Shown one piece after another: positions 98-32,458 of a stretch of DNA of 37,640 nucleotides. Under the pieces are notes generated by a model, which ran no database searches, was not told the origin of the DNA, and saw nothing but the letters and a program-made list of their open reading frames with translations. Within the stretch, counting starts at the first letter, position 1. Every line of letters starts with the position of its first letter. Source of the stretch: a virus; UHGV virus genome UHGV-1707198; one strand, written 5' to 3'. A program made the position numbers and the translations under genes.

Positions 98-1996
98 TTG
101 GCGCAATATATGCGAAACCAGATGGATTCTGCGACTTATCAGCGTACTTTGCCTGACGGCACTCCGATGATGGACTTCGAAGGTAAGCCGATTATTGGGC
201 CTAAACAACTCAAGACGCAGCTTAATTTGCAGAAAGCATCCAGCGCCAGCTCTCTGGAGAAAATGAGCGATGAAGAGCGTGCCGCAGCCATTGCTGCACT
301 AACTAAAGCTCGTGAACAGGATGCAGCAGCTGCCGAGAAAGCAGCCCAACGATCAGCTAACGCCTCGCAGCGTGCGGCCAAGAAGGAACAGGCAGCGCAA
401 CAGAAACTGGCAGCCGGATACCAGAAGGCTCTGGACAAAGCCGATCAGCTTATGGGGCAAATGGGTGAAAGCTCTAAGGCTACGGTATCGTTTGATCAGT
501 CTCTTCGCGATACAACGAAATCGCTGACAGATTTGGCTAATGCGGTTCCTAACGAGTTCATCACTCAAGAGATGATCGACAAGGCGAAAAAACGTCTTGA
601 AGACCTCAAAAATGCGACACCTGAATATCGCGAGATGTTTAATCGCCGCAATGTTGAGCAGATGATCTCCACTTGGGCACCGGAGGCGGATTCCATTATT
701 AGTGCTGGCTATACGCCGTCTCGCGAAGAGAAAGTTGCTGATTTCGAAGACACCTACAACCGCAATCTCAAAGCGTTGATAGAACTTCGTGATAAGGCGT
801 CTGATCCTAAAGTTGTGGCGCTTTATACAAAGAAAATCAATCAACTGATTGCTGCTGGCAATACCGCGCTTATTAAAGAGACGGGGACTGCGACGCAGAA
901 GTTGGCACTGGAATACGAAAACTTGGCAGAGCAGATCGAAAGCACCTGGACTGATTTGTTTAGTGGCTTAACTGATGTCCTGACTGATTTCGTTATTAAC
1001 GGGAAGATGAGCTTCTCCAGCCTATCTCAGTCCATTTTGAAAGATATCACCAATATGGTCGTGAAGTCGCAAATCACGCTGCCTCTAATGAACATGTTGG
1101 GGATGGGAACCACCGCAGCTGGTAGTTCACAGAGTGGTAATTTGCTGACCGGGGTTGCTTCCGCCGTTGCCAATCAAGGGGTACGAATGGGCAACACTGT
1201 TAACGGCGACAAGTCGGTAGGAGAAGCCACGAAGGAGACGTCCAGTTCGGTAACTGGATTGGGGCAAACAACACAGCAGACCACCAGCGCAATTGGCACT
1301 GCAACAAATGCGATTGGTAGCTGGGTATCAGGGCTATTTGATAGCACTGAAGCCAAAGATGCCGAGACAAAAGCCGTGAAGGACTCCATCTTCTCGATGC
1401 AGAACCTCAGCTCTGTTACCGGCGCGCTGTCTGCCGCGTTTGCAATGCTTGGAGCTAATGCTTCCGGCTCTGGTAATAAGTGGTTGAGTTTTGGAGCAAC
1501 GGTTGCATCTGGTCTTGTTTCAGCTTGGGCTGGCGGTGGTTTCGACAGCGTGACATCAAGCTCTGCTAAAACCGCAACCAGCAGTGTGGCTGACGGAACT
1601 AAAGGCATTCCTGCAATCCCGAAGTTTGCAAATGGAGGAATATTCGGAAAAGACGGCGTGATCCCGCTCCGGGCATACCAGAAAGGCGGTATTGCTAACT
1701 CGCCTCAATTAGCGTTGTTTGGGGAAGGTTCTATGAATGAGGCGTATGTTCCATTGCCTGATGGCCGAACAATCCCTGTAACGCTCAGTACCGATGGTAT
1801 GAGTGGAGGCGGAAATGTTCTTTCTCCTGTATCAATTGAGATCAACGTCCATAGTGACGGTAGCACGACAGAATCCGGCGATACAGAAAGCATATGGAAC
1901 AATGCCGCTCAACGGATGAAAGCAATCGCGCTTGAGACTATCGCTCAAGAGAAACGCCCTGGCGGATCACTCAACCCAAACACTCAACGTAACTAA
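98..1996 (+). CDS. putative tail tape measure protein
   Basis: Sits immediately upstream of M-L-K-I-J homologues, the lambda position of gene H. Ala/Gln/Lys-rich helical N-terminal half, Gly/Ser/Thr-rich C-terminal half. In-frame stops at 11-13 and 23-25 mean the ORF begins inside the window (TTG at 98 or ATG at 110); 632 aa is short for a tape measure, so the call is tentative. Confidence 0.5.
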   Translation: MAQYMRNQMDSATYQRTLPDGTPMMDFEGKPIIGPKQLKTQLNLQKASSASSLEKMSDEERAAAIAALTKAREQDAAAAEKAAQRSANASQRAAKKEQAAQQKLAAGYQKALDKADQLMGQMGESSKATVSFDQSLRDTTKSLTDLANAVPNEFITQEMIDKAKKRLEDLKNATPEYREMFNRRNVEQMISTWAPEADSIISAGYTPSREEKVADFEDTYNRNLKALIELRDKASDPKVVALYTKKINQLIAAGNTALIKETGTATQKLALEYENLAEQIESTWTDLFSGLTDVLTDFVINGKMSFSSLSQSILKDITNMVVKSQITLPLMNMLGMGTTAAGSSQSGNLLTGVASAVANQGVRMGNTVNGDKSVGEATKETSSSVTGLGQTTQQTTSAIGTATNAIGSWVSGLFDSTEAKDAETKAVKDSIFSMQNLSSVTGALSAAFAMLGANASGSGNKWLSFGATVASGLVSAWAGGGFDSVTSSSAKTATSSVADGTKGIPAIPKFANGGIFGKDGVIPLRAYQKGGIANSPQLALFGEGSMNEAYVPLPDGRTIPVTLSTDGMSGGGNVLSPVSIEINVHSDGSTTESGDTESIWNNAAQRMKAIALETIAQEKRPGGSLNPNTQRN

Positions 1997-3155: not shown

Positions 3156-3945
3156 TAAAGCAATCCCTGAGCTTGGCTCTGACGTTATGCAGCAAATCTA
3201 TCTCTGCGCCATAAATCGCTACCCTAATGAAGCGTGTGGCTTTCTGGTTAGAACTAATGGCGACAAATATCGCTTTATGGAAGCGCGGAATGTTTCGGAG
3301 AACCCGCAGAACACTTTTGTAATGCACGTTGACGACATTATGGCGGCAGAGGATGCGGGTGATGTTATCGCAATCTGGCATTCACATACTGATGAATCAG
3401 CAGAAGCATCTTATGCCGATCGTGCAGGCTGCGAAGCGACGGAAGTTCCGTGGATGATTCTGGCTATTCGCAAGAATGTTGAGGGAGATGCCCCTTTCCA
3501 TTTTAGCGAGATGAATGTGATCACACCTGATGGTTTCGAAATGCCATACCTGGGCAGACCGTATGTATTTGGCGTATTTGATTGCTGGATGTTGTGTCGG
3601 GACTATTTGAAGCGTGAGTTTAACGTCGAACTAAACCCGAACGCACACCTGCATATTCCATCGTGGTACACCGGCGATAACGACATTCTCGATCAGAACT
3701 ACCGAAACGAAGGATTGGTACGGCTTGCGCCCGGAACAGAACCTCAACGTGGGGACGTCTTCTTTATCCAATACGGAAAAATGCCTGACCACTGTGCGGT
3801 TTATATCGGCGATGGAATGATTCTTCATCACCAGATCGACCGCCTTAGTTGTCGTGCTTATTACGGCGGGATGTATCAGAAACATACGACGCATCACTTG
3901 CGTCACAGAGACTTGCTCAAGGGAGATGAGACGTGTCTGAGTTAG
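3148..3945 (+). CDS. tail assembly protein, lambda gpK-like (JAMM/MPN plus NlpC/P60-type domains)
   Basis: Start overlaps the L stop (ATGGGTAATAA). Contains an HSHTD motif consistent with a JAMM metal site and a Cys-containing C-terminal hydrolase-like region; position matches lambda K. Confidence 0.7.
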   Translation: MGNKAIPELGSDVMQQIYLCAINRYPNEACGFLVRTNGDKYRFMEARNVSENPQNTFVMHVDDIMAAEDAGDVIAIWHSHTDESAEASYADRAGCEATEVPWMILAIRKNVEGDAPFHFSEMNVITPDGFEMPYLGRPYVFGVFDCWMLCRDYLKREFNVELNPNAHLHIPSWYTGDNDILDQNYRNEGLVRLAPGTEPQRGDVFFIQYGKMPDHCAVYIGDGMILHHQIDRLSCRAYYGGMYQKHTTHHLRHRDLLKGDETCLS

Positions 3946-7500: not shown

Positions 7501-9265
7501 TCGTGTTGAAGGCGATGCTGCAAACGCTAAACAACTGGAAGTGTTGCAGTCAACGGTAGAGGAAAGCTCCGCTGCCGTTGAAGAAATGAAAAAGACGGTT
7601 GCAGAGGTCGATCGTGCCAGTGCAGAACTGACTACGAACATTGAGGCGTTAGCCAAAACAAATATTGACCTGGCTCTTCGTCAAGATGAAGACCAGCACA
7701 AGCAGATGGTCAATAACGCGAAGATCGCAACAACACAGAAAACCTTTGCTGATGATATGTCTGCAATGGCCACGAAGGTTGAGGAAATTCGCGTAGAAAT
7801 TGGCGAAGACATTAAGGCCAGTATTCTGGAAGAGTCCACCGCTCGTGCCGATGGCGATGAAGCGTTGGCAAAGCGTGTCACTCAGCTGCAATCTAAGTTT
7901 GAAGGAGATATCAGCGCGGCGATTAGTACAGAGCAGGAGGCTCGCACATCTGCCGATGAAGCTCTGACGACACAGATCACTCAGCTTGAGTCGAAAGTAA
8001 GCAACGATATCGTCGCAGCTATTAAGGAAGAGCAAGAAGCCCGAGCAACGGAAGATTCGGCTCTGGCAAGCCAGATCACCCAACTTCAGGCAAAGGTTGA
8101 TGATGATATTTCTGCTGCAATACGTAGTGAGCAGGAGGCCCGAGCAAGCGGGGACTCTGCGTTAGCCAAACAAATAAACCAGCTTCAGTCAAAGGTTGAC
8201 GGTGATATATCCGCTGCCATCACTCAGGAGCAGGAGGCCAGAGCAAGTGCTGACCAGGCGCTCTCACGAGAAATTAACAGCCTGCGAGCACAAACCGGAA
8301 CTGATATTGCCGCAGCGGTTGCTGTAGAGACAAAGGCAAGGACTGATGCCGATAGTGCATTGTCCACTCAGATTTCGTCTCTTACAGCAAAAGCTAATGA
8401 TCTCGAGGCATCTCTTGCCAGAGAAACAACGGCTCGTGCTGATGGTGATACCGCTTTAACAAAAGAGGTTTCAAGTTTAAAAGCACAGACAGCGAAAGAT
8501 ATTAGTGCGGCCGTTGCAGTTGAAACGCAGGCTCGAACTGATGCTGACTCGGCGTTGTCGTCTCAGATCACCAAGCTGACCTCTCAATACAAAGAGGATA
8601 TTAAAGCGGCTGTAGCAACCGAAACGAAAACGCGTACAGAGCAAGATGCTGCATTGGCGACTCAAATCACAAACTTAGAGTCTCAAACGGCAGCCAACAT
8701 TTCCGCGGCGGTAACAACTGAAACGACAGCGAGAACGCAGGCAGATAATGCTCTGAGTGGGCGAATCGATACTCTGAAAGCAGAGGTGGATGGAAATACC
8801 GCGACAATTCAACAGCAGGCAACAGCTATTGCTGATACCAACAAAAAAGTGTCAACCGCGTGGACGTTGAAAATGGAAACTTCAACGAGCGGAGGGCAGA
8901 AGTATGTTGCTGGTATTGCGCTTGGTATCGACACCACTGGCCTTTCTCAGTTTTTGGTGCAGGCTGACAGGTTTGGTTTGGTCAACTCTGTTAACGGGAA
9001 GATCACCACGCCATTTGTTATCGAAAACAGTATCGCCTATATGAATGGTGCGTATATCAAGGATGGCACAATCACCAATGCAAAAGTAGGCGATCTGCAA
9101 TCTACCAATTTTGTTAGCGGTAGATCTGGATGGCGGTTCGGCAAAAATGGAACGCTTGAGATCAACGGTAATAGCGGGGGTAATGGGCGACTGGTCATAA
9201 ATGGTCAGCGGATTGACGTTTATGACGATAACAACGTCCTACGAGTAAGAATTGGCCTTCTGTAA
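4541..9265 (+). CDS. host specificity / central tail fibre protein, lambda gpJ-like, with extended C-terminal repeat shaft
   Basis: About 1574 aa from the ATG at 4541 (ORF track begins at TTG 4535); AAGGA ribosome-binding site upstream; large N-terminal region typical of J-family tip proteins; follows the I homologue. C-terminal third is tandem repeats. Confidence 0.85.
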   Translation: MEQFKKKKLPLLIAGAGGKKSKSSSRTPVEADDTVNSRAMAAILDLLGEGVIGGLVNGAKSIFIDDLPILNEDGSSNFSGITWDFRDGSQDQTPMAGFDFVETPKSVNIQLKKTHDVTVSIDNDEADRVRVIMKFPSLRSVDKSSGDTNGTTVKYKFQIANADATFSDVVAEGEKSVDITLTAKKTGVYYRSYELKLPKPGRAYKVRVIRLTDDNSSQYLYNDTWVDSIGEIVDTPMNYPNSALVGLKVNSEQFGSTMPSRSYLVRGIKIRVPSNYNEYTNTYVGVWDGTFKLLSSSNPAWILYDLLTNTRYGLGQFVSESMIDLGQLYQIGRYCDEEVDDGFGGKEKRFAINTQITSRQDAYRLIQDIAGAFRGMVFWAGGMVNIMQDSPSDPVMMFTNSNVKDGLFTYKGSARKDRPSVALVTYNNKEDGYKQNIEYVEDQDAMRRYGERKTEVVAFGCTSRGQAHRVGLWLLYTARMESDVITFTAGLDASFLMPGETVLIQNKYRAGKRNSGRIVEFTKNSITLDAPVSLAKSGSFIRILNQEGKIVERDVLETGENITKVTFSKALSSAETPVLNGVWTITEPDLEPMRVRIVNIAQGETPGSFDITAVENNPSKYEAIDNGATLIPQNTTVLDPTYSKPSNLQITEGTYLSSPGNLSVKLTATWEGKSPEYWISWRRSDENNVSNWQSARVTEEQYEIVNVAENGRYDFQLYAVSFNGKKTEIISTVYQVLGTMTPPDAPTSLTAVGDYRNVILNWVNPDSVDLDHINVYASQTNNLDTAKLIAESASTTFTHAGLGDSETWYYWVRASNKRGMLSPPNSNLGTEATTRDVLSFLAGKITSSELGQALLEDINSKASQEAVDELNEHINQSVESLEGSVNDVKEDIAELDKQFSDNLAGFEIKFNERSDALENAQTELKGEVSATIDKVNEAFEKIDATDAAIVEIENTVSEHDKALANTVEAIKAARDEAAALIAKESEARVEGDAANAKQLEVLQSTVEESSAAVEEMKKTVAEVDRASAELTTNIEALAKTNIDLALRQDEDQHKQMVNNAKIATTQKTFADDMSAMATKVEEIRVEIGEDIKASILEESTARADGDEALAKRVTQLQSKFEGDISAAISTEQEARTSADEALTTQITQLESKVSNDIVAAIKEEQEARATEDSALASQITQLQAKVDDDISAAIRSEQEARASGDSALAKQINQLQSKVDGDISAAITQEQEARASADQALSREINSLRAQTGTDIAAAVAVETKARTDADSALSTQISSLTAKANDLEASLARETTARADGDTALTKEVSSLKAQTAKDISAAVAVETQARTDADSALSSQITKLTSQYKEDIKAAVATETKTRTEQDAALATQITNLESQTAANISAAVTTETTARTQADNALSGRIDTLKAEVDGNTATIQQQATAIADTNKKVSTAWTLKMETSTSGGQKYVAGIALGIDTTGLSQFLVQADRFGLVNSVNGKITTPFVIENSIAYMNGAYIKDGTITNAKVGDLQSTNFVSGRSGWRFGKNGTLEINGNSGGNGRLVINGQRIDVYDDNNVLRVRIGLL
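7823..8800 (+). repeat. about ten tandem 99-bp (33-aa) repeats inside the J-like gene
   Basis: Repeating protein unit of the form ISAAIxxEQEARAxxDxALxxQITQLQSKVxxD, read directly from the translation; heptad-like, suggesting a coiled-coil shaft. Confidence 0.75.
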
Positions 9266-9293
9266 TGTAGAAAAAAATATTTATATCGGTAAA

Positions 9294-9315
9294 AATAAGT
9301 AGGTACATACTTAAT
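9294..9315 (+). promoter_or_regulatory. recurrent motif, copy upstream of the tail fibre gene
   Basis: AATAAGTA-ggtaca-TACTTAAT, near-perfect dyad. Confidence 0.45.
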
Positions 9316-9357
9316 GGTGGGCAAGGATAGCCCACCAAATCAAGGAGCATATTCAAC

Positions 9358-12300
9358 ATGTGGTACAGGGAAGGTACTATCACATTTACACAGGGCAGCA
9401 ATACTCTGGTTGGGGCAGGGACAGCCTGGAACGTAACAGCTAATGGTGTGTTGCCGGGGATGATCGTCATTGGCCCCGACAATAAGCTGTATGAGATCAA
9501 GCGCGTAACCAGTGATACGAACATTGTTCTCTCAGAACCCTATACCGGCGAAACTCAGTCTGAAGTTCCGTGCCGAATCATTACGACCTATGAAGGCGAC
9601 TTAACACAGTTTAGCGCGCGCTTTACAGCACTAATGTCGCGTATGTCGGCTGATTCCAAGTCCATGCGCAGTTGGTTGACTGCTCTGGATGAGGTGACAA
9701 TCGAGCGTGAAGACGGTACAGAAGTGACCGTTAAGCCGCTAATGCAGATCGTCAACGAGCACAACGAAAACGTTGAGTGGTATAAAAATAACACTGACGC
9801 GATTGATGCTGCTGGCGACAAAGCTCGTGAGGCGGCGGCCAGTGCTGCCGCAGCAGCAGAAAGCGCCAATACCGCTGGAGAAAAAGCCTCTCAAGCGTCT
9901 CAAAGTGCATCCGCTGCAGAGTCCTCAAAAAGCGCGGCGGCCACCAGTGCCGGTGCCGCGAAAACGTCTGAAACGAATGCTGCAGCGTCACAAAAATCTG
10001 CAGCCACTTCTGCATCCACCGCGACCACGAAGGCGTCAGAAGCTGCCACCTCAGCCCGGGATGCGGCGGCCTCAAAAGAGGCAGCGAAATCATCAGAAAC
10101 GAGCGCAGCCTCGAGCGCCAGTAATGCCGCTTCCTCGGCAACGGCGGCAGGAAATTCCGCGAAGGCGGCAAAAACGTCCGAGACGAACGCCAGGTCTTCT
10201 GAAACGGCAGCGGGACAGAGCGCCTCGGCTGCGGCAGGCTCAAAAACAGCGGCTGCGTCGTCTGCCAGTGCCGCGTCAACAAGTGCCGGGCAGGCCTCAG
10301 CCAGTGCCACCGCCGCCGGAAAATCGGCAGAAAGTGCCGCATCATCTGCTTCAACAGCCACAACGAAGGCTGGCGAAGCCACTGAACAGGCCAGCGCAGC
10401 AGCGAGGTCTGCTTCCGCAGCGAAGACATCCGAAACGAACGCGAAAGCGTCGGAAACCCGTGCAGAATCCTCAAAAACGGCAGCCGCATCGTCCGCCAGT
10501 TCGGCAGCGTCATCGGCATCATCTGCGTCTGCTTCAAAAGATGAGGCGACCAGACAGGCGTCAGCAGCGAAGGGCAGCGCCACGACGGCATCCACGAAAG
10601 CAACAGAGGCGGCAGGCAGTGCGACGGCAGCATCTCAGAGCAAAACTGCTGCTGAATCCGCTGCGACCCGTGCGGAAGCTGCTGCTGATCGTGCTGAAGA
10701 GATTGCCGGTGCAGTTGCGATGGAAGACGCAAGCCTTACAACTAAAGGTGTTGTGAAACTTAGCAGTGCTGTCGACAGCACCAGTGAATCGCTGGCCGCA
10801 ACGCCAAAAGCAGTTAAAGTAGTCAATGACAATGCGAACAGCAGGGTGCCATCTAACCGAAAAATTAACGGGAAAGCACTGACTGCGGATATCACATTAA
10901 CGCCGAAAGATATTGGTACTTTAAATTCAATAACGATGTCTTTCTCTGGCGGGGCCGGGTGGTTCAAACTGGCTACTGTTACAATGCCACAAGCGAGTTC
11001 CATCGTTTACATCGCATTGATTGGTGGCGCTGGTTACAACGTCGGCTCCCCACATCAGGCAGGCATTTCAGAACTGGTTCTACGAGCAGGCAATGGAAAC
11101 CCCAAAGGGATTACAGGTGCTTTGTGGAAGCGTACAGCTGTCGGATTAACGAATTTCGCCTGGATCAACACATCCGGCGATACATATGATATTTACGTTG
11201 AAATTGGCAATTATGCGACGAGTGTAAATATCCATTGGGATTGTACTGCAAATGCGTCAGTTTCTGTTTATACATCGCCAACATATTCAGCGAGTAAGCC
11301 TTCCAGCGTTACCGATGGTGTTGTTTATACGATGTATAGCACACATCAGAAACCGACGCCGTTAGATATTGGAGCACTGCCAACAACCGGAGGAACAGTT
11401 TCAGGTCCGTTGTCTGTTACTGGTGGGATCACCGGAACATTAAATGGTAATGCAAGTACAGCAACGAAATTGCAGACGGCAAGATCTATCGGTGGAGTTG
11501 GTTTCGACGGTTCTGCAAATATCAACCTTCCAGGTGTAAACACTACGGGTAATCAGAACACCACTGGTAATGCTGCAACTGCTACAAAACTTCAGACTGC
11601 AAGAAAAATATCCGGTGTTCCATTTGATGGTTCTACTGATATCACTTTAACCGCTGCGCATGTTGCCGCTTTCGCAAGAAGGGCAACAGGGTCATATGCG
11701 GATGCTGATGGTGGCGTGCCGTGGAATGCTGAATCTGGTGCTTACAATGTAACTAGAACAGGCGACAGTTATATTCTTGCCAACTTTTATACCGGTGTAG
11801 GTAGTTGCCGTACGCTTCAAATTAAAGCTCACTATAAAAATGGTGGTCTGTTCTACCGTTCCTCAAGAGATGGCTATGGTTTTGAAAGTGGTTGGGAGCA
11901 GGTTTACACGACTGGATTTATGCCTCAGCCGGCTGATATAAACGCACCAACCGCTGCCGCTGGATGGTTAAATAGTGGTAACGGAACGGCATTTACGACT
12001 GCTCAATTTATAACTTGGCTAAACAATCAGGGGGCATTTACAAACAAACATTGGATCGCACGGTGCTCATGGACTTACGCCAACAATAATTATATAGACG
12101 ACACTGGTTGCGGTAGGATCGATCTATCTGGTTCCGTGATTGAGGTGTTTAGTAATAAGGCAACAAGCCACTACACTATTCGTGTTACAACGACAACAAC
12201 ATCAGGTCATGGTGGTGTTAATAATGCGGAATTTATTTATGTGTACAATGGGAGTGATTATGCGCCAGGCTGGCGTCGTTCTTATAACACTAGAAACAAA

Positions 12301-13656
12301 CCAACAGCTTCTGATGTAGGAGCATTACCGCTTTCAGGTGGCACATTATCTGGAGGGTTGACGTCTTCTGGTGAGATCGTTTCAAAATATGCAAATGGTT
12401 TCCGCATTGCTTACGGTAACTACGGGTTCTTTATCCGTAATGACGGCGGCAGCACATATTTCATGCTAACAGCATCAGGAGATACGTTAGGTTCATGGAA
12501 CAGTTTGCGACCGATTATAATTAATAATAGCAGCGGTGTTGTGTCTATTGGTAATGGACTAAATGTTACTGGTGGCGTAAATGGTAGCTTGAATGGCAAT
12601 GCTTCAACAGCTACGAAGTTGCAAACAGCGAGAAACATCAATGGTGTTAAGTTTGATGGTTCAGGTGATATCAATATTAATACATTGGTTTCTCGTGGTC
12701 GAGTTACGGCTTTAAGCGGTTCTACTCAAGGTACTGCTGGCATTCAAATGTACGAGGCGTACAACAATAGCTACCCGACCACGTATGGCAACGTATTGCA
12801 CATGAAAGGTGCGAGTGCTGCTGGTGAGGGCGAGTTGCTTATTGGCTGGAGTGGTACGAGCGGTGCACATGCGCCGGTTTTCATTCGCTCCAGAAGAGAT
12901 ACCACTGATGCGGCATGGTCAGCGTGGGCGCAGGTATATACCGCTAAGGATTCAATCCCTGGTGTGAATACAACCGGTAATCAGAATACTACTGGTAATG
13001 CCGCAACAGCCACAAAATTGCAGACAGCAAGGAAAATTGCTGGTGTGGCGTTTGATGGCTCTGCCGATATTACTTTGACTGCGGCTAACCTTAATGCTTA
13101 TACGAAAACAGAGGTAACAAACCTTCTAAGTTCCTATGCAAGCAGATCATCACTGACAGGCTATAGTGGCAACCTGGATATTATTGCTGAAACACTGGTT
13201 GTCAAATCAGGCGGTAGTGGAGGGTTTGCTATATGGGATATTGGCACAACTACTAGCGGTGCCAATATGTACATTGATCCAAACCCAGGTATCAATACAG
13301 TTTGGCGTTCAACATCTTCAAGGCGCTATAAAAAGGATATTGAAACATTACAAGATCGATATGCTGATGAACTTTTGTCATTAAGACCTGTTTGGTATCG
13401 TTCAATTTGTCGAGGTGACCGAAAGGATTGGGGGTATTACGGCCTTATTGCTGAAGAGGTTGGTGAGATTGCCCCGCAATATGTCCATTGGCGTGAACCA
13501 ACAAATAATGATTCTCCAGGAGATATTTCCTCAAATGGTATGGTCGCTGAAGGAGTGATGTATGAGCGTTTGGTTGTACCACTCATTCATCATATTCAGC
13601 AATTGACCAAAAGGGTTGAGGAGCTTGAAACGAAGTTAAATTCACCTAAAGAATAA
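9358..13656 (+). CDS. side tail fibre protein with C-terminal S74-type intramolecular chaperone domain
   Basis: 1432 aa; GGAG ribosome-binding site. Ala/Ser/Thr-rich degenerate repeats (KTSETNA, SASAA) at residues about 160-460, like lambdoid Stf-type fibres as I recall them. Repeated GNASTATKLQTARxIxGVxFDGSxDI fibre motifs. C-terminus (DIETLQDRY...GLIAEEVGEIAPQYVHW) resembles the self-cleaving chaperone of T5 pb1 and endosialidase-type fibres. Confidence 0.8.
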   Translation: MWYREGTITFTQGSNTLVGAGTAWNVTANGVLPGMIVIGPDNKLYEIKRVTSDTNIVLSEPYTGETQSEVPCRIITTYEGDLTQFSARFTALMSRMSADSKSMRSWLTALDEVTIEREDGTEVTVKPLMQIVNEHNENVEWYKNNTDAIDAAGDKAREAAASAAAAAESANTAGEKASQASQSASAAESSKSAAATSAGAAKTSETNAAASQKSAATSASTATTKASEAATSARDAAASKEAAKSSETSAASSASNAASSATAAGNSAKAAKTSETNARSSETAAGQSASAAAGSKTAAASSASAASTSAGQASASATAAGKSAESAASSASTATTKAGEATEQASAAARSASAAKTSETNAKASETRAESSKTAAASSASSAASSASSASASKDEATRQASAAKGSATTASTKATEAAGSATAASQSKTAAESAATRAEAAADRAEEIAGAVAMEDASLTTKGVVKLSSAVDSTSESLAATPKAVKVVNDNANSRVPSNRKINGKALTADITLTPKDIGTLNSITMSFSGGAGWFKLATVTMPQASSIVYIALIGGAGYNVGSPHQAGISELVLRAGNGNPKGITGALWKRTAVGLTNFAWINTSGDTYDIYVEIGNYATSVNIHWDCTANASVSVYTSPTYSASKPSSVTDGVVYTMYSTHQKPTPLDIGALPTTGGTVSGPLSVTGGITGTLNGNASTATKLQTARSIGGVGFDGSANINLPGVNTTGNQNTTGNAATATKLQTARKISGVPFDGSTDITLTAAHVAAFARRATGSYADADGGVPWNAESGAYNVTRTGDSYILANFYTGVGSCRTLQIKAHYKNGGLFYRSSRDGYGFESGWEQVYTTGFMPQPADINAPTAAAGWLNSGNGTAFTTAQFITWLNNQGAFTNKHWIARCSWTYANNNYIDDTGCGRIDLSGSVIEVFSNKATSHYTIRVTTTTTSGHGGVNNAEFIYVYNGSDYAPGWRRSYNTRNKPTASDVGALPLSGGTLSGGLTSSGEIVSKYANGFRIAYGNYGFFIRNDGGSTYFMLTASGDTLGSWNSLRPIIINNSSGVVSIGNGLNVTGGVNGSLNGNASTATKLQTARNINGVKFDGSGDININTLVSRGRVTALSGSTQGTAGIQMYEAYNNSYPTTYGNVLHMKGASAAGEGELLIGWSGTSGAHAPVFIRSRRDTTDAAWSAWAQVYTAKDSIPGVNTTGNQNTTGNAATATKLQTARKIAGVAFDGSADITLTAANLNAYTKTEVTNLLSSYASRSSLTGYSGNLDIIAETLVVKSGGSGGFAIWDIGTTTSGANMYIDPNPGINTVWRSTSSRRYKKDIETLQDRYADELLSLRPVWYRSICRGDRKDWGYYGLIAEEVGEIAPQYVHWREPTNNDSPGDISSNGMVAEGVMYERLVVPLIHHIQQLTKRVEELETKLNSPKE
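11532..11660 (+). repeat. intragenic direct repeat copy A (fibre motif block)
   Basis: About 130 bp at roughly 80% identity to 12961..13090; both encode GVNTTGNQNTTGNAATATKLQTARKI(S/A)GV(P/A)FDGS. Confidence 0.7.
12961..13090 (+). repeat. intragenic direct repeat copy B (fibre motif block)
   Basis: Partner of 11532..11660; a third, shorter related copy lies at about 12590..12690. Confidence 0.7.
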
Positions 13657-13671
13657 ACAACTTCAATCGGG

Positions 13672-13697
13672 GCTGGAACTAAACCAGCCCCTGCTTA
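13672..13697 (+). terminator. putative rho-independent terminator after the tail fibre gene
   Basis: GGGGCTGG-aactaaa-CCAGCCCC hairpin followed by a T/A-rich run. Confidence 0.45.
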
Positions 13698-13716
13698 AAA
13701 GTATAAGGATATATTT

Positions 13717-13971
13717 ATGAGCTATGGTGCACAGGTTTGGTCGCCATCAAGACAGGAGATGGTCGATGCGTTGGCCCCTGTTTATTACCTCGATTATTTT
13801 ACTCCCTCTGGTTCAGGAAGTAGAACATATGAGGTTGAGGCGGGATTGGGAATCGACTATTACATAATGGACGTAACCAATGGAAAATACACAAGTCTTA
13901 CGGTTTCTGGAAATACCATTTCGTGGTCTGGAGCTAGTGGTAATTTAAACATATTGGTTTTTCAAAAATAA
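13717..13971 (+). CDS. hypothetical protein
   Basis: 84-aa ORF; its stop overlaps the next start (TAATG), implying translational coupling. Confidence 0.35.
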   Translation: MSYGAQVWSPSRQEMVDALAPVYYLDYFTPSGSGSRTYEVEAGLGIDYYIMDVTNGKYTSLTVSGNTISWSGASGNLNILVFQK

Positions 13972-14579
13972 TGTACGGAAGCAAGATATATCGATCTGAC
14001 GGGAAGGTCTGGATGTCTCCTTCTTTGTCTCCTATCGTTTTTCAGAGAAAGCAGGTTGTTTCTTTGTCCGGCGGGACAGAGTTTAACACCCAAATATCTC
14101 CAGATCGTTCACCGATGATTTTTGTTGCCTATTCGAAAGCTGTTTCATTAATAGCCAACAGAATAGTGCGTAACAACCAGGTGATTTACAGTTTCGGAGG
14201 TCAGGGTAGCGACTCTAGTGCCACGATATACGTATTTTCGAAAGGTATAGCCAAAAAAGAAACTTGGGGCATGAGTTTTTTCAATGCGCGAGGAGAGGAG
14301 ATCTATAATACGGCAAATATCCCACTTTCATTTACCTTTCTTAATAATACGGAGTGGAACAGTTCTGGAGGGCATGTTTTTGATTACCCGCCAGCGATAA
14401 TCCCAACATATGCAAATGTGTTCGCGGTTCCAGTACCGGGCGGGGCCATGACAATGGTTTATGGATATGCGGCATATGGAAATACTGTTAGCTCTATATT
14501 CGTAAACCAACTTAATGGCGGCCATAGTTTTAGTGTAAATGGCAGAGTACCGGTAATAAATAGAAATCTGTATAACTGA
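13971..14579 (+). CDS. hypothetical protein
   Basis: 202-aa ORF coupled to the upstream small ORF; lower GC than the tail genes; no motif recognised. Confidence 0.4.
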   Translation: MYGSKIYRSDGKVWMSPSLSPIVFQRKQVVSLSGGTEFNTQISPDRSPMIFVAYSKAVSLIANRIVRNNQVIYSFGGQGSDSSATIYVFSKGIAKKETWGMSFFNARGEEIYNTANIPLSFTFLNNTEWNSSGGHVFDYPPAIIPTYANVFAVPVPGGAMTMVYGYAAYGNTVSSIFVNQLNGGHSFSVNGRVPVINRNLYN

Positions 14580-23036: not shown

Positions 23037-24218
23037 ATGAGCCTTTATGTTATATCAACATTTAGGTTGGTCACAATATTGCCTGTTAAAAGTGGAATTA
23101 TCGTGAGCGAGCTGAAAGAGCTAATTACCGAATTAGATTTTGAACAATGGTTGGATACTGAAGGTATCGTTTATCGACGTGGAGGCGTGAGTACTCGCGG
23201 TCGTGAAGTGAATATCAAGGAGTGTCCGGTATGCGGCAGCTCCAACTGGAAGGTATATTTCAATCTGACCAGTGGCGTCGGCAAATGCTTCGCTGGTGAT
23301 CATCCCGAAGAGATTCAGTTCAATAAGCTGGTCTTCCTCAAGCACTACAGCGGTAAATCACGACGACAGTTCGAGGAATATGTGCAGAACGCTCTTCTTT
23401 CCCAGGGGTGGGCACCAAAGAAAGAAGAGCTAGTGCTTGCAAGCACAGTCGAGTTAGAGGGGCCAGTTGCACTCCCTCGTCATTACGAGCTTCCTATAGA
23501 TGGCCGTCTTCCAGACTATCTGGTTGAACGAAACATATCACCTGAAATGGCAAAGTATTTTGACCTACGATACTGCGTCGAAGGCAAGCACGCTTATGTA
23601 GATCCGTATACAGATCAGGTAAAAGGGCAGATATTCGATATGCGAATACTGATACCGGTTTACGATCTGGATGGGGTAATGAAGACATTTCAGGGACGAG
23701 ACATTACCGGTACAGCAGAACGCCGCTACCTCTTTCCTATGCAGCTTCCAGCTTCAGGTAAGTTTCTCTACAACGGCCATAATGCAGTCGGCAAACAGAC
23801 TGTAGTTGTCTGTGAGGGGGCGTTCGATGTTATGGGGGTTAAACGAGCTATTTTTGACGAAGAAACATTACGTGATTACGTGGAACCAATAGGAACGTTC
23901 GGGATGCATCTATCTGGTAACACCACTCAGGATGCAGAAGATCAGTTAGGCGCGTTCCTGACGCTCAAGGCGCGTGGGTTACGTAATGTGATCATGATGT
24001 GGGATAGTGAAAAGCAAGCTATACGCAACACTATGGCCGCAGCCAGGCGACTGAGCAGTATTGGTCTTAATGTGAAAATTGCATGTTTGGGCGAGGAAGG
24101 ACTCGACCCCGGCGATGCGACCCCGGGGCAGATTATCAAAGCCTACTATTGCGCAAAACCTTACTCACGACAGCTTGAACTCTTAAGCAAGGTGAAAGGC
24201 ATTGCAGCACTAGTTTGA
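23037..24218 (+). CDS. DnaG-like DNA primase
   Basis: Cys/His zinc-finger-like motif CPVCGSSNW...CFAGDH and a TOPRIM-like VVVCEGAFD segment. Start uncertain: the ORF track begins at GTG 22965 inside a hairpin, so ATG 23037 or GTG 23103 is more plausible. Confidence 0.55.
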   Translation: MSLYVISTFRLVTILPVKSGIIVSELKELITELDFEQWLDTEGIVYRRGGVSTRGREVNIKECPVCGSSNWKVYFNLTSGVGKCFAGDHPEEIQFNKLVFLKHYSGKSRRQFEEYVQNALLSQGWAPKKEELVLASTVELEGPVALPRHYELPIDGRLPDYLVERNISPEMAKYFDLRYCVEGKHAYVDPYTDQVKGQIFDMRILIPVYDLDGVMKTFQGRDITGTAERRYLFPMQLPASGKFLYNGHNAVGKQTVVVCEGAFDVMGVKRAIFDEETLRDYVEPIGTFGMHLSGNTTQDAEDQLGAFLTLKARGLRNVIMMWDSEKQAIRNTMAAARRLSSIGLNVKIACLGEEGLDPGDATPGQIIKAYYCAKPYSRQLELLSKVKGIAALV

Positions 24219-25355
24219 ACCAGTATTAGTCACATACACATTGACCGAAAATGATTTAACTTCTGTATTGAAGTTGTCAGTCATTACCGCGAGGTAGGCA
24301 TTCTTGGTATCTCTGAATTGCTTCAGGATGATTTGAACGTTATCGGTGCAAACAAACGAGGTAGCCAGATTGCCTCCTTTCTCTGAAAAATCCTTCAGGA
24401 AGGTGCAGTCAACTTTGCCATCATTAGCGGTGAAGGTAGCATCATCACCCTGCCAGGTAAATGTAGCGTTAACGCCCTTATCAATGGATTTAGCAATAAG
24501 TCGCTGGGTGGCGGATTTTGTTTTGGCTTTGGAAGCCGGCGCTCGATATTTGCCGCTTTCTTTCAGTTCTGCAATGTAATCGCAGCCTCTTTTTTCTCCT
24601 TTATCGCAAGCAGTCTGATAAAGGTCGGCTGCTTTTTTATAGTCCTTTTTTACACCTTCCCCATTCTCATACATAATGCCAAGATTGGTTATGGCGTCGG
24701 CGTTTCCAAGTTCCGCTGCCTTTTTATACCACTTAACTGCTTCTGCATCATTGCGTTTAACGCCTAACCCATCATCGTATAGTATTCCTAATCCTATCAT
24801 AGCTTCTGAACTGCCTTGGTCTGCCGCCTTTTTGTAATAAGTAAAAGCCTTTTTATAATTCTTTTTAACGCCTTTACCATATTGGTAATACGCCCCAAGA
24901 ACTGAAGTTGCTTTAACATACCCGGCATCAGAGGCTAGTTTGAAGTATTTAATGGCGAGTGCATGATCTACTTTACCAAGCATCCCCTTTTGATAAATAG
25001 CACCAAGATTGTTGTAGGCTCTACCTTCACGAGCATCCCCCGCAAGTTTGTAGTACTCAACAGCTTTATTTAGGTCTTTATCTACACCCTCGCCAAATGT
25101 GTACATAACTCCAAGTGCATAATATGCTACTTTATCTCCCTTTTCTGCAGCTAGATCAATCCACTTCTTGGCCTCAACTACATCCTTATCAAAACCATTG
25201 ACACCATCAAAATAATTTGTACCTAACTCACTTTGTGCTGCGGTATCCCCTGCGGTAGCGGCTTCTATCAGCGTTTGTTTATTGTCTGCGTTAACGAATC
25301 CAGAGTTAAAAAGCAAAGTTAATGCCAGCAACGATGAAGATTTTATGTATTTCAT
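24210..25355 (-). CDS. secreted Sel1-like repeat (TPR-like) protein
   Basis: Start taken at MKYIKSS (plus-strand CAT at 25353..25355), giving a Sec-type signal peptide. At least six repeats of the form A..WYKKAAEQG...A...LG.MY..G.GV.KD, characteristic of Sel1-like repeats. Confidence 0.6.
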   Translation of the reverse strand: MKYIKSSSLLALTLLFNSGFVNADNKQTLIEAATAGDTAAQSELGTNYFDGVNGFDKDVVEAKKWIDLAAEKGDKVAYYALGVMYTFGEGVDKDLNKAVEYYKLAGDAREGRAYNNLGAIYQKGMLGKVDHALAIKYFKLASDAGYVKATSVLGAYYQYGKGVKKNYKKAFTYYKKAADQGSSEAMIGLGILYDDGLGVKRNDAEAVKWYKKAAELGNADAITNLGIMYENGEGVKKDYKKAADLYQTACDKGEKRGCDYIAELKESGKYRAPASKAKTKSATQRLIAKSIDKGVNATFTWQGDDATFTANDGKVDCTFLKDFSEKGGNLATSFVCTDNVQIILKQFRDTKNAYLAVMTDNFNTEVKSFSVNVYVTNTGSN

Positions 25356-25587
25356 GTTTTTTTTCTGTTGATATAGGATGAACAGTTTAGACGCGGCAAG
25401 CGTCAAGTGTGCGAAAAAGGGTACTTAAATTTAGTTAATATGTCAGCTTTGTTGATTTAGTTTATGGTCGGTAAAGTTACTGGGAAACTAATAACCATAA
25501 GAAATAGTACGCCATTTAATTATTGTGGCACTGCTCGTGTTTTGATTAACTAATACCTGCGATAAATATAAATAAAGGGAAGCCAAC

Positions 25588-31195: not shown

Positions 31196-32458
31196 TTACT
31201 TTACATAGTCGCCCAGTTTTAATATTTCGCGCTTATATTCTTTAACCATGCTACTGGATTCAGTATAAATTCGATTTAAAAGATTATCGCTATCTTTATT
31301 CTCATTTATCTTAATGAGTGATAATTTAAATTCATAGTCATCAAATGCCACAATCAAATGGTGGCCTGGGATTATATCTTCGTCACTCTTGAAGTATATA
31401 TCTTCAAGTATGTAATCTAGTTGATTAGATTTTCTTTTCTCGATGTAATCTTCAGCCATAGCTATTACATCATTCCTGTCATTTAACCTGTTTTTTTCGG
31501 AAGGCACATCTTCGTAATGTTGCACGATTGAACAACCAATAAGGCGTGGGATGTAAACGTCAAAATGAGTAACTCTATCATTCGCGGTTTTAAGTAGTTC
31601 CTCAAAGTAGTTTCTTACATGTAAAGGCAACTTCTCAAAGTAATCATTAATTATAGGAGAACAAGGAGTTTTATAATTCATAAGAACCGACGGTACGAGC
31701 TTTGGGTCTCGAAACATCCAGTCCCTTTTAACGTCCGATGGAACATAATAACTTTTAATGATATTATCAAAATAATTTATCATTCGAGATTTGAATATTT
31801 TGTTGAATCTAAGGTTTATGAATGCATCCAGATAAGGCATATCTGAATAAGCATCATCAAAAAATATTTCATCATTGAAAAAATCATATTTATTTAATAA
31901 ACAACACAGTTTTCCCGAATTAATATGTTCACAATAATCGATCTTTAATCCAAAGATAGCAATGATCAACTTCATCTGAGGTGGGATTTTGAAAATTAAT
32001 TGTGACACATACGCTCTTTTTTCCTTTAGACATTCCCCATCAATATAAAATGAACTATCCACATACTCAAAAATATTAATAATATGCTTCACATACTGTA
32101 TTACCTCATGCTGTTTTACCAATGGGTAATATAGTCTATGTAACTCATCGCTGTTTAAATTAATTTTGCGTTTATCGATAATTTGTTTTGCAAGAAGACA
32201 TAGCTCATCATGTTGATTTAATAAGGAATCAAACCATTGTTTAAATGCACTCTTTCGCATTTCGAACAATGATTCTGTTGTTAATTGAAGGGCTGAAAAA
32301 GCTGCTTTTGCACTTTTTCTCGCTTCGTAGGCATTCCATGCTGTTGCTATAAAAGCAAATGCTGTAGCCAATGTTCCAACAATTTGACCATTTAAAACAA
32401 CCCAATCCCAAAAAATCACGGTGAGCAGTAGTATAATAATGAAAATTAAAAAAGGCAT
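31196..32458 (-). CDS. AT-rich membrane-anchored protein of unknown function
   Basis: 420 aa; N-terminal two hydrophobic helices (FLIFIIILLLTVIFWDWVV and VGTLATAFAFIATAW), then a large Asn/Lys/Tyr/Phe-rich domain. Opposite strand to nearly everything else; very low GC. Confidence 0.5.
   Translation of the reverse strand: MPFLIFIIILLLTVIFWDWVVLNGQIVGTLATAFAFIATAWNAYEARKSAKAAFSALQLTTESLFEMRKSAFKQWFDSLLNQHDELCLLAKQIIDKRKINLNSDELHRLYYPLVKQHEVIQYVKHIINIFEYVDSSFYIDGECLKEKRAYVSQLIFKIPPQMKLIIAIFGLKIDYCEHINSGKLCCLLNKYDFFNDEIFFDDAYSDMPYLDAFINLRFNKIFKSRMINYFDNIIKSYYVPSDVKRDWMFRDPKLVPSVLMNYKTPCSPIINDYFEKLPLHVRNYFEELLKTANDRVTHFDVYIPRLIGCSIVQHYEDVPSEKNRLNDRNDVIAMAEDYIEKRKSNQLDYILEDIYFKSDEDIIPGHHLIVAFDDYEFKLSLIKINENKDSDNLLNRIYTESSSMVKEYKREILKLGDYVK

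Follow-up and report, generated by a model that had tools for sequence, protein, structure and literature searches.

The fiber gene analyzed here very probably encodes the homotrimeric side tail fiber of a siphovirus phage-plasmid of the SSU5/pHCM2 type, shaped by the exchange of linker-bounded modules and ending in an S74 chaperone predicted to remove itself. The gene lies in the window, that is, the whole 37,640-nt stretch of viral DNA that was analyzed (UHGV virus genome UHGV-1707198), and its features are listed in Table 1.

Table 1 Features of the fiber gene, with positions in the window
Feature	Position	Strand	Basis or remark
Shine-Dalgarno-like AAGGAG	9342..9347	+	10 nt 5′ of ATG; read in sequence
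Side (lateral) tail fiber gene	9358..13656	+	ATG start, 1432 aa plus stop
N-terminal anchor domain, aa 1-150	9358..9807	+	Specific to SSU5 phage-plasmid lineage
Ala-core coiled-coil shaft, 42 heptads, aa 155-448	9820..10701	+	Heptad register, periodicity, AF2, stf homology
One Phage_fiber_2 repeat, aa 459-499, DASLxxKGVVKLSS...ATPKAVK	10732..10854	+	Pfam PF03406, 68 bits
First globular module, aa ~500-685	10855..11412	+	Common to lambdoid Stf proteins
Linker copy 1, GNASTATKLQTARSIGGVGFDGSANI	11445..11522	+	
Linker copy 2, GNAATATKLQTARKISGVPFDGSTDI	11565..11642	+	Junction with Cyrano/pAVS0223-B-type alleles
Module homologous to Mu S′ 324-421 / gp37_C, aa 771-868	11668..11961	+	PDB 8ju3 alignment
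Module homologous to Mu S′ 201-326, aa 860-986	11935..12315	+	PDB 8ju3, i-Evalue 7.9e-35
T4 gp34 C-terminal trimerization-type domain	12223..12597	+	Pfam PF21446, E=1.8e-29
Linker copy 3	12594..12671	+	Junction with allele L006; left edge of P1-like module
P1 Sv′ / P7 S-like module, aa 1100-1253	12655..13116	+	tblastn, ~76% protein identity
Linker copy 4	12993..13070	+	Right edge of P1-like module, left edge of tip cassette
Distal tip of predicted mature fiber, aa 1248-1319	13099..13314	+	Presumed receptor-binding end
S74 intramolecular chaperone, aa 1320-1432	13315..13653	+	Pfam, dyad, profile, fold match
Predicted nucleophile S1320 codon	13315-13317	+	
K1325 codon	13330-13332	+	

Gene and genomic setting

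The ORF strongly matched PHROG tail-fiber families, and its coordinates, strand, ATG start and length were as the sequence-only reading had given them. Some RefSeq records place the start of the fiber at M129; the AAGGAG 10 nt before the first ATG favors the long start at 9358. Genes 97–99.8% identical were found in 48 complete E. coli genomes, where they are annotated as "phage tail fiber protein." All replicons carrying them among the matches listed were of approximately 110 kb, up to 156 kb; those examined were SSU5-like plasmids, the ~110-kb E. coli elements being related to SSU5 and Cyrano. The gene order in the tail operon was tape measure, L, C40 peptidase, tail assembly protein, TipJ, fiber, cor, and lysis genes. 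Three fiber alleles that differed by 113–127 nt (~3% divergence) were all intact, with no indel or stop codon, and pN/pS among them was 0.16–0.19. Judged by sequence comparison, the gene is functional and under purifying selection. A Pfam scan of the two ORFs 3′ of the fiber gave zero matches, and PHROG placed them in the "outer membrane" and "membrane associated moron" families. No recognizable separate chaperone or adhesin gene follows the window allele.

Modules of the fiber

The proposal that the gene is a mosaic tail fiber was supported. All three modules named in the sequence-only reading (the Ala/Ser-rich region, the repeated motif, and the C-terminal chaperone) are real, but three was an undercount, as nine or more segments could be told apart by their affinities. 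Parts absent from that reading were the T4 gp34-type domain, the Mu S/S′ modules, and the P1 Sv′-like module, together with the Phage_fiber_2 repeat, the lineage-specific anchor, and the strict order of the Ala/Ser heptads.

Only SSU5-like elements had an anchor with 77–100% identity, and identity to those of other siphoviruses did not exceed 33%; all six SSU5-family alleles examined carried it. A Pfam scan of the anchor gave no significant match and no lambda StfN-type domain.

The Ala/Ser/Thr-rich region previously placed at about 9830..10730 was found again as the shaft. Ala, Ser, and Thr made up 70–78% of aa 151–450, and the S-A-x-x-A-x-x heptads ran without a break, with Ala in column 5 in 100% of the rows and Ser in column 1 in 79%. 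Autocorrelation of Ala peaked at lags of 7, 21, 28, and 35, and the dominant FFT period was 3.49. AF2 modeled the shaft as a single continuous helix (mean pLDDT of 80). The shaft DNA shared ~89% identity with K-12 Rac prophage stfR, a clear likeness to a known fiber, and thus the Ala/Ser region corresponds to the proximal coiled coil of lambdoid Stf. A match to the fiber gene was present in 4142 of 5426 complete E. coli genomes, mostly through this region. In Ur-lambda gpStf, the equivalent residues 102–393 are reported to form a trimeric proximal coiled coil (PMC12617516).

The PF03406 match of the Phage_fiber_2 repeat was visible only when the segment was scanned by itself; the repeat aligned with Mu S residues 105–156. 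For the first globular module, phrog_21552 matched aa 455–767, DNA homology with lambdoid stf reached query nt 2270–2528, and no sequence relatives were found in PDB; alleles L005 and L006 carried a diverged second copy of it. The gp37_C score of the module at aa 771–868 was 27.2 bits (cut-off, 22.5). The gp34-type domain extended over aa 956–1055 in Pfam and over aa 990–1080 in the PDB alignment (4uxe, 5nxf, 5yvq). The left limit of the P1-like module (aa 1100) was set by the query used, and its matches in P1 Sv′ and P7 S were invertible-segment fiber parts. The fiber gene itself yielded no inverted repeats and hence no sign of an invertible segment.

Linker copies and module junctions

The motif GNAxTATKLQTAR, previously counted as "at least three" copies, which was correct but too low, occurred four times (aa 697, 737, 1080, and 1213; nt 11446, 11566, 12595, and 12994). 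The direct repeat pair described as ~130 bp was recovered at 11530–11657 and 12958–13085 (128 nt, 79% identity); a third, less similar copy (60%) lay at 12559. Between linker copies 2 and 4, identity was 89% at the protein level and 77% at the DNA level; just 19 of 40 identical residues had the same codon, synonymous sites being scrambled. The longest exact DNA match shared by copies within the gene was 11–12 nt, equal to that of codon-shuffled controls, which is the chance level. The copies are, to judge from their codons, conserved as protein only.

The fiber gene matched allele L004 (Cyrano/pAVS0223-B-type) at 100% identity as far as about query nt 2240, and identity was lost directly after KLQTAR. 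Allele L006 (CMS-2020a SCU-107) was collinear at 95.8% identity, ending at query nt 3272. The H143 match ran from query nt 3238 to 3674, which is from motif 3 to motif 4, and its end fell on the penultimate base of the KLQTAR codons. Homology with T1-like and lambdoid tip proteins began at aa 1248–1251. Because sister-allele homology stops directly after KLQTAR, the modules appear to be bounded by the linker. The suggestion that internal repeats could mediate domain shuffling was upheld in part: sister-allele homology stopped at or inside motif copies, and module order was permuted in relatives, but the absence of exact matches longer than 12 nt, together with the scrambled synonymous sites, makes the copies poor substrates for intragenic homologous recombination.

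Two compatible explanations of the clustered junctions were weighed. The chances are about even that the motif is a structural joint between knob domains, such that only linker-joined chimeras fold and survive, by whatever mechanism they recombined. Conservation of the motif in protein with scrambled codons, the permuted but always linker-flanked modules of Mu S′ and allele L005, and a pN/pS of 0.03–0.14 over motif-containing segments argue for such a joint, although no solved structure contains the motif. It is also possible, and is proposed tentatively, that the motif DNA itself was the substrate of homology-driven crossover, including intragenic crossover between copies. The stops of collinear identity with L004 and L006 directly after KLQTAR and the exact motif 3-to-motif 4 span of H143 would fit this, as would the 7 of 22 distinct homology end-points that fell in repeats covering 11.6% of the gene (P ~ 0.01). 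The window allele and L004 shared 100% identity over more than 100 nt running into the motif-2 junction; thus, homology of crossover length exists between alleles. Within the gene, however, copies share only 11–12 consecutive identical bases and are kept by selection on the protein, which makes them poor for RecA-type exchange. Moreover, BLAST alignments run through conserved cores, which biases end-points toward motif edges, and recurrent junctions at nt 525–545, 1460–1478, and 2528 lay away from the motif.

Distal tip and S74 chaperone

The S74 match expected from the sequence-only reading was obtained (PF13884 at aa 1320–1376, 27 bits vs. a cut-off of 22; 31 bits on the fragment alone). These Pfam scores are modest. 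S1320, S1321, and K1325 were invariant in 151 of 151 family sequences, and the preceding R-S-T was invariant or nearly so. The profile of the C-terminal family matched the T5-like fiber 8hqz (E = 1e-8); a pairwise search of the C-terminal 333 residues against PDB chains detected no sequence similarity. The chaperone was modeled with a pLDDT of 84–97, and its best Foldseek matches were 7dc3, 3gud, and 3gw6 (the MyRF, GA-1, and endoNF chaperones), with intramolecular chaperones only at the top of the list. On sequence and model, the C-terminus is a true S74 intramolecular chaperone and passes every in silico test that can be run. Cleavage is predicted between T1319 and S1320. The scissile and catalytic residues of T5 pb1 are T1263, S1264, and K1269 (PMC4690869), and the dyad of endoNF is S911/K916 (PMC8326128); the T-S-x-x-x-x-K geometry of the window allele matches that of both. 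Because confidence in the modeled tip was low (pLDDT ~60), counterparts of the stalk residues completing the active site of T5 and endoNF are not identifiable here. By analogy with T5 pb1, the tip is presumed to be the receptor-binding end (PMC4690869).

Alternative explanations of the C-terminus and of the overlapping ORFs

The Pfam score of just 27 bits could reflect a degenerate S74 remnant that is left uncleaved on the mature fiber. This is improbable, as the catalytic Ser and Lys are invariant across the 151 family members and the preceding R-S-T nearly so, the three alleles differ in the chaperone by 0 synonymous and 1–2 non-synonymous changes, the fold resembles that of active chaperones, and the uncleaved form of the T5 fiber is unable to bind its receptor (PMC4690869). 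We regard it as very improbable that a fiber gene and a separate small tip/S74 gene were accidentally fused into the long ORF, whether as a pseudogene or an assembly artifact. A homologous tip and S74 unit does form a separate gene of 225–234 aa in KarlJaspers and PhiR49_1, but 48 complete genomes, which come from various hosts and countries, carry the 4299-nt ORF uninterrupted, and the frame is kept in three ~3% diverged alleles with a pN/pS of ~0.17. Homology with the small proteins begins at their residue 43–50, and thus their N-terminal ~45 residues were replaced rather than read through.

Among the five other frames, three had stop-free runs of 337, 327, and 244 codons over the shaft, whereas the remaining two reached only 60 and 111 codons. 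Long spurious ORFs are therefore present as claimed, but their extension to all other frames was overstated. At codon position 2 of the Ala/Ser region, C made up 67% of the bases and T 0%; this composition depletes the alternative frames of stop codons and generates such ORFs. Their length (231–327 aa) is the one point for a real overlapping gene (9773..10756 on the + strand, or 9752..10732 or 9900..10595 on the − strand), the likelihood of which we consider negligible. The ORFs coincide exactly with the stop-depleted region, their translations are of low complexity (Arg/Pro/Gln-rich or Ala/Asp/Phe-rich), promoter-like signals for them did not exceed chance, and the fiber frame alone is annotated in the thousands of stf genes with this region.

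Comparison with known fibers

Like T5 pb1 (8hqz), the window allele is a long siphovirus side fiber that ends in an S74 chaperone, has the same arrangement of residues (Thr1319-Ser1320 and Lys1325 vs. Thr1263-Ser1264 and Lys1269), and lacks a separate adhesin or Tfa gene. Its tip, in contrast, is short, with ~70 aa past the final linker copy, and bears no relation to the pb1 "bullet" domain, and the remainder of the fiber comes from other lineages. The shaft and the next ~350 residues are homologous to lambda Stf and Rac StfR (85–95% DNA identity, starting at nt 525–545), whereas the window allele has the SSU5-type anchor in place of their N-terminal collar domain and the S74 tip in place of a gp37-like tip with a separate Tfa chaperone.

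The SSU5 gp021, Cyrano, CMS-2020a, and pYLMB53a alleles share locus, anchor, and shaft with the window allele, and most have the Gp34_trimer domain. A different S74 subtype (42 bits) forms the end of the SSU5, L005, L006, and L007 fibers, and a Gp38-type adhesin gene comes next. In Cyrano and L004, scanning the full-length fiber with Pfam revealed no S74, and neither a chaperone nor an adhesin ORF was present between the fiber and holin genes. The window allele differs from these in having a T1-like tip/S74 cassette without an adhesin. Modules in common with Mu S/S′ and P1/P7 S are Mu Sc 105–156, Mu S′ 201–326 and 324–421, and P1 Sv′ (~76% in protein), the order of the two Mu S′ modules being opposite to that in Mu. 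Unlike the window allele, the Mu and P1/P7 fibers belong to contractile-tailed phages with separate U/Tfa chaperones. The small S74 proteins of KarlJaspers (bas06_0035; Drexlerviridae) and the lambdoid PhiR49_1 were 50–56% identical over aa 1248–1431. In those phages, tip and chaperone are encoded as a stand-alone gene that supplies an N-terminus of its own (~45 residues) and lies 3′ of the main fiber gene and a ~92-aa ORF, whereas in the window allele the unit is fused in frame after linker copy 4.

Proposed assembly and function

The fiber most likely works as a homotrimer; the structure predictions are of monomers, so trimer geometry is outside their reach. The anchor would dock it onto the tail tip beside TipJ, followed by the shaft, ~43 nm long if α-helical, the Phage_fiber_2 repeat, and the globular modules common to lambdoid Stf, Mu S′, T4 gp34, and P1 Sv′, spaced by the four copies of the linker GNAxTATKLQTARxIxGVxFDGS. 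The last 113 residues would trimerize through their C-terminal helix and template the folding of the tip (aa ~1248–1319). S1320, activated by K1325, would then attack the T1319-S1320 bond, and release of the chaperone would expose the putative receptor-binding end, as in T5 pb1. A self-cleaving tip of this kind would explain the absence of a Gp38 adhesin or Tfa gene after the window allele, which probably arose through the exchange of linker-bounded modules between unrelated phages.

The gene is a clear case of known tail-fiber mosaicism, already annotated and no new kind of system, with modules recognizably in common with lambda, Mu/P1, T4, and T1-like phages. The fused tip and chaperone might behave unlike the separate ~230-aa protein of T1-like and lambdoid phages.

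Fiber gene and host element

The 1432-residue ORF proposed at 9358..13656 (+ strand) was confirmed as a real gene that begins with ATG, and the full-length gene was 97–99.8% identical in 48 complete E. coli genomes. Among the matches listed, every replicon carrying the fiber gene was approximately 110 kb long (156 kb at most); the ones examined were plasmids. The nearest phage records were Cyrano, CMS-2020a, and SSU5. The gene stands in a tail operon of the standard siphovirus kind, which runs from tape measure and minor tail proteins through C40 peptidase, tail assembly protein, and TipJ to the fiber, followed by two small membrane-protein genes, cor, and lysis genes. The source of the window is an SSU5/pHCM2-type E. 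coli phage-plasmid. SSU5-like phage-plasmids occur commonly in both E. coli and Salmonella, and resistance genes can be carried by them (PMC9600943).

The gene is already present in RefSeq and is rightly annotated there, as "phage tail fiber protein" or "tail fiber domain-containing protein". In NZ_CP104116.1, NZ_CP035843.1, and NZ_CP031136.1 (loci L001, L010, and L011), the fiber CDS begins at M129 (3915 nt); NZ_CP101923.1 carries the long start, with the full 4299 nt annotated. We rejected the M129 start: the DNA is identical, the 384 nt located 5′ of M129 are conserved, keep the frame, and follow a Shine–Dalgarno sequence (SD), the first 128 residues are kept in SSU5 and Cyrano, and another RefSeq record has the long start. 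Several RefSeq records probably have the start codon mis-annotated. A promoter and terminator scan of 9100–14000 showed nothing above shuffled expectation in or beside the fiber gene.

Three alleles on other plasmids, which share most differences and hence are not independent, differed at 113–127 positions and had neither indels nor stops (pN/pS 0.16–0.19). Synonymous divergence among close alleles was 0 in the chaperone and 0.15–0.18 in the gp34 and P1-like segments, which points to a further, fine-scale patchwork even between close alleles.

Segments of the fiber

The exchange of tail-fiber segments in modular fashion among unrelated phages is a long-known phenomenon. The sequence-only reading had interpreted the gene as a mosaic tail fiber of three fused modules; the mosaic was borne out, but three was an undercount, and we distinguished at least nine (about nine) segments of differing affinity.

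Features of the fiber and of neighboring genes (aa, residues of the protein named; other positions, nucleotides of the window)
Feature	Position	Strand	Affinity or annotation
TipJ, 1576 aa	4535..9265	+	fn3 at aa 746–825; Phage_Tail_Tip at aa 1424–1558
AAGGAG (SD)	10 nt upstream of ATG at 9358	+	From sequence
Fiber, anchor	aa 1–150		SSU5-like elements only, at 77–100% identity; elsewhere at most 33%
Fiber, lambdoid Stf coiled coil	aa 155–448		
Fiber, Phage_fiber_2 repeat	aa 459–499		Common to Mu S
Fiber, knob	aa ~500–685		Common to lambdoid Stf proteins
Fiber, Mu S′ residues 324–421	aa 771–868		Also Pfam gp37_C
Fiber, Mu S′ residues 201–326	aa 860–986		Order reversed relative to Mu
Fiber, T4 gp34 C-terminal trimerization-type domain	aa 956–1080		
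Fiber, P1 Sv′ / P7 S	aa 1100–1253		~76% identical
Fiber, tip and chaperone	aa 1248–1432		44–56% identical to T1-like and some lambdoid phages
84-aa ORF	13717..13971	+	phrog_557 "outer membrane protein"; no Pfam family
202-aa ORF	13971..14579	+	phrog_425 "membrane associated", moron category; no Pfam family
KAP-family P-loop NTPase, 567 aa	18947..20650	+	PADLOC candidate defense family PDC-S49, E = 1.3e-21
397-aa protein, five Sel1 repeats	24210..25406	−	Pfam E = 1.4e-53; strand opposite to neighbors
419-aa protein	31196..32458	−	phrog_18168 (unknown function); no Pfam family; faint PtuB-like match

The anchor had no significant Pfam match, and PDB sequence searches with the first knob (aa 501–700) and with the stretch spanning linker copy 3 and the sequence up to the tip (aa 1080–1251) returned nothing. 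Gp34_trimer (PF21446) matched aa 956–1055 (E = 1.8e-29; PDB matches 4uxe and 5nxf); this domain is all that the fiber has in common with T4 gp34, of which it is not an orthologue. Compared with lambdoid Stf/StfR, the fiber has the proximal Ala/Ser-rich coiled coil but lacks the StfN collar domain, with which Stf docks on the lambda tail tip (stf DNA homology starts only at nt 525–545 of the gene), and its tip is an S74 cassette instead of a gp37-like distal tip with a separate Tfa. In the Mu/P1 fibers S and S′, the variable C-terminal part is carried on an invertible segment between inverted repeats; nothing points to such a segment here, as a search within the fiber gene for inverted repeats of at least 20 nt found none, and the common modules stand in permuted order.

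A phage-fiber-repeat family had been expected among the HMM matches. PF03406 (Phage_fiber_2, a 42-residue repeat) was indeed matched, once and with 68 bits, but its element, DASLxxKGVVKLSS...ATPKAVK, is distinct from the GNAxTATKLQTAR block. The full-length hmmscan returned only two Pfam families, Phage_fiber_2 and gp37_C not being among them, and both surfaced in a piecewise scan; the neighboring 300-residue biased region apparently suppressed these matches. Full-length Pfam scans can thus mask a domain of 68 bits beside compositionally biased sequence.

Ala/Ser shaft

The region formerly described as a degenerate Ala/Ser/Thr-rich repeat was as rich in these residues as stated (70–78% across aa 151–450) but more ordered. 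When aa 155–448 were written in rows of seven, they formed 42 unbroken heptads S-A-x-x-A-x-x, with Ala in the fifth column of all rows, Ser in the first column of 79%, and Ala in the second column of 69%. Ala autocorrelation was maximal at lags 7, 21, 28, and 35, and the top Fourier period was 3.49 residues. AlphaFold2 (single sequence) modeled one continuous helix (323 of 330 residues, mean pLDDT 80); if alpha-helical, the shaft would be ~43 nm long (294 residues × 0.15 nm). Its DNA shared ~89% identity with K-12 Rac prophage stfR, and 4142 of 5426 complete E. coli genomes had a match to the fiber gene, mostly to the shaft block. In the 2025 Ur-lambda structure (PMC12617516), the side fiber has its proximal coiled coil, a trimer, at the equivalent gpStf residues 102–393. 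Given the heptads, the helix prediction, the stfR DNA identity, and this published coiled coil, the Ala/Ser region is a standard lambdoid Stf shaft.

The shaft repeat is a protein-level heptad and not a DNA array: Tandem Repeats Finder reported no tandem DNA array for the Ala/Ser stretch, and in the whole gene just three 20–23-nt fragments, two of which lie in this stretch. Codon position 2 of the shaft was 67% C and 0% T. Long open reading had been claimed for all other frames; three of the five did contain runs of 337, 327, and 244 stop-free codons, but the other two reached only 60 and 111. These open frames result from codon composition, and overlapping genes in them were rejected on that basis.

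Linker copies and module junctions

The GNAxTATKLQTAR block (the linker), of which at least three copies had been counted, was found in four, at aa 697, 737, 1080, and 1213. Two subtypes were distinguished, with L-x-VTGG-x-x-G-x-LN preceding copies 1 and 3 and PGVNTTGNQNTT preceding copies 2 and 4. The direct repeat pair reported earlier was also recovered, as 128 nt at 11530 and 12958 with 79% identity. Copies 2 and 4 were 89% identical in protein and 77% identical in DNA, with the same codon at 19 of 40 identical residues, and the longest exact run between any copies (11–12 nt) was at the level of codon-shuffled controls. A recent duplication of the 128-nt repeat was rejected, its synonymous sites being scrambled. 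Judged from these comparisons, the copies are ancient and have been maintained by selection at the protein level. The linker matched no Pfam family, a PDB sequence search with copies 1–2 (aa 680–775) gave chance matches only (E > 0.1), and a literature search on "KLQTAR" returned one paper, which was irrelevant.

Against alleles of the pAVS0223-B/Cyrano type, collinear identity was 100% through "...GNAATATKLQT" of copy 2 and then collapsed immediately; against CMS-2020a (SCU-107), collinear identity of 95.8% stopped at nt 3272 of the gene, right after the KLQTAR of copy 3. A P1-like plasmid matched precisely the interval that opens with copy 3 and closes with the copy 4 KLQTAR (nt 3238–3674), and homology to free-standing tip proteins began just past copy 4. 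In the same-locus allele L005, the module that here follows copy 3 sits upstream of the gp34-type module. Seven of the 22 distinct internal homology end-points fell in the repeats, which represent 11.6% of the gene (binomial P ≈ 0.01), and three were at most 6 nt from a core boundary (P ≈ 0.015), the end-points being not independent and BLAST extending alignments through conserved cores. Recurrent junctions away from the motif were located at nt 525–545, 1460–1478, and 2528.

In our reading of these alignments, the linker delimits exchangeable modules. The module borders may lie there either because crossovers take place in the linker DNA itself or because chimeras joined elsewhere fail to fold. 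The earlier suggestion that the repeats mediate shuffling stood in part: sister alleles show the linker bounding exchanged modules, but crossover between the internal copies of one gene is unlikely because the copies lack the DNA identity for it.

C-terminal chaperone

The proposed C-terminal S74 intramolecular chaperone was supported by a Pfam match above the cut-off, an invariant dyad, and a fold match. PF13884 matched aa 1320–1376, scoring 27 bits on the whole protein and 31.1 bits on the fragment alone (cut-off 22), and each of 26 diverse relatives passed the cut-off individually (26/26). The domain comprises the last residues of the fiber (aa 1320–1432); in relatives, the match stopped short of the C-terminus by a median of 4 residues. 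An exhaustive search with aa 1248–1432 yielded 4636 related cluster representatives, and S1320, S1321, and K1325 were invariant in 151 of 151 aligned relatives. The spacing of S1320/K1325 equals that of the proven Ser/Lys dyads of endoNF (S911/K916) and MyRF (S587/K592) (PMC8326128) and that of the T5 pb1 dyad S1264/K1269, where the scissile bond is T1263-S1264 (PMC4690869). In S74 proteins, the active site also needs stalk residues of the neighboring chain to be complete (Arg1250/Asp1239 in T5; Arg897 in endoNF). In the fiber, N1303, R1317, S1318, and T1319 were nearly invariant among the 151 relatives, and the stalk was modeled at pLDDT ~60 in a monomer model.

A phmmer search of the PDB with the last 333 residues found nothing even at E ≤ 10, so the T5-like L-shaped fiber 8hqz was reached only through the family profile; the profile of 26 diverse relatives matched it with E = 1e-8, TSGIEYK being aligned with TSSxRYK. 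The AlphaFold2 monomer model of the chaperone had pLDDT 84–97 and a long terminal helix (model residues 126–152, pLDDT > 90), the element that builds the trimeric coiled coil in this chaperone family. The sole Foldseek matches with E < 1 were MyRF ICA 7dc3 (E = 2.7e-4, probability 1.00), GA-1 3gud, and endoNF 3gw6, with moderate TM-scores for the monomer model (0.4–0.55). Cleavage is predicted between T1319 and S1320 and would result in a 1319-residue fiber and a 113-residue chaperone. In T5, the cleaved form alone binds the receptor (PMC4690869), and by analogy cleavage may unmask receptor binding in this fiber.

Neighboring genes

Between its fn3 and Phage_Tail_Tip domains, TipJ contains about ten tandem 33-residue repeats, EQEARxxADxALxxQIxxLxxKVxxDISAAI (residues ~1099–1420, ~nt 7829–8794), with identity maxima at lags 33, 66, and 99 and a hydrophobic period of ~3.64. 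These repeats look like a hendecad-type coiled coil that would extend the central fiber.

In pEc2-51408 and SSU5, the 84-aa ORF, the 202-aa ORF, and the exclusion lipoprotein gene cor form a cassette 3′ of the fiber. The window has both ORFs; at the corresponding place, pEc2-51408 and SSU5 have cor annotated as the next gene. Alleles of Cyrano, pAVS0223-B, pYLMB53a, and CMS-2020a lack the cassette, and a holin gene follows the fiber in them.

The KAP-family gene is a low-GC island (GC ~0.30 vs. ~0.46 in the surroundings). Because pEc2-51408 carries other genes at the equivalent position (DUF2971 and hypothetical genes), this region looks like a variable accessory or defense slot. The gene of the 419-aa protein is a second low-GC island (GC 0.32–0.36).

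Distal designs in the SSU5-like family

Host range is set by tail fibers, and the SSU5-like family showed at least three distal designs on one anchor. SSU5, pYLMB53a, and two CMS-2020a records end in a different S74 subtype (42 bits), and the next gene encodes a Gp38-type adhesin. For Cyrano and pAVS0223-B, a full-length Pfam scan showed no S74, and there is no chaperone or adhesin ORF between their fiber and holin genes. The window allele carries a T1-like tip/S74 cassette without the adhesin. Both KarlJaspers (Drexlerviridae) and PhiR49_1, a lambdoid phage, have this cassette as a separate gene of 225–234 aa with its own ~45-residue N-terminus, located downstream of the main lateral fiber gene and an ORF of ~92 aa, whereas in the window fiber an in-frame join behind linker copy 4 replaces that N-terminus.

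Everything found in the fiber belongs to known families, and none of the findings alters the current understanding of tail fibers. Three points are modestly new: the shaft keeps a strict register of 42 heptads, junctions were placed to the base just behind KLQTAR, and the tip/S74 cassette has fused and free forms. The sites just after the linker KLQTAR are likely to be safe splice points for fiber engineering, with modest practical value. We also put forward, tentatively and with rather low expectation, a joint proposal: that tip plus S74 (aa ~1248–1432) is a portable, self-folding receptor-binding cassette, used either as a small gene by itself, as T1-like and some lambdoid phages have it, or spliced in frame behind a linker, as in the window, and that the linker, with crossovers just after KLQTAR, serves fibers of siphoviruses and myoviruses alike as a general splice point. 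If this were true, the motif would be a rule-based grafting site with which to re-target phages and phage-plasmids. The allele itself is a clear example of the gain of a new distal specificity, in which the anchor is the element's own and lambda-, Mu/P1-, T4-, and T1-like phages supplied the shaft, the knobs, and a tip that brings its own chaperone.
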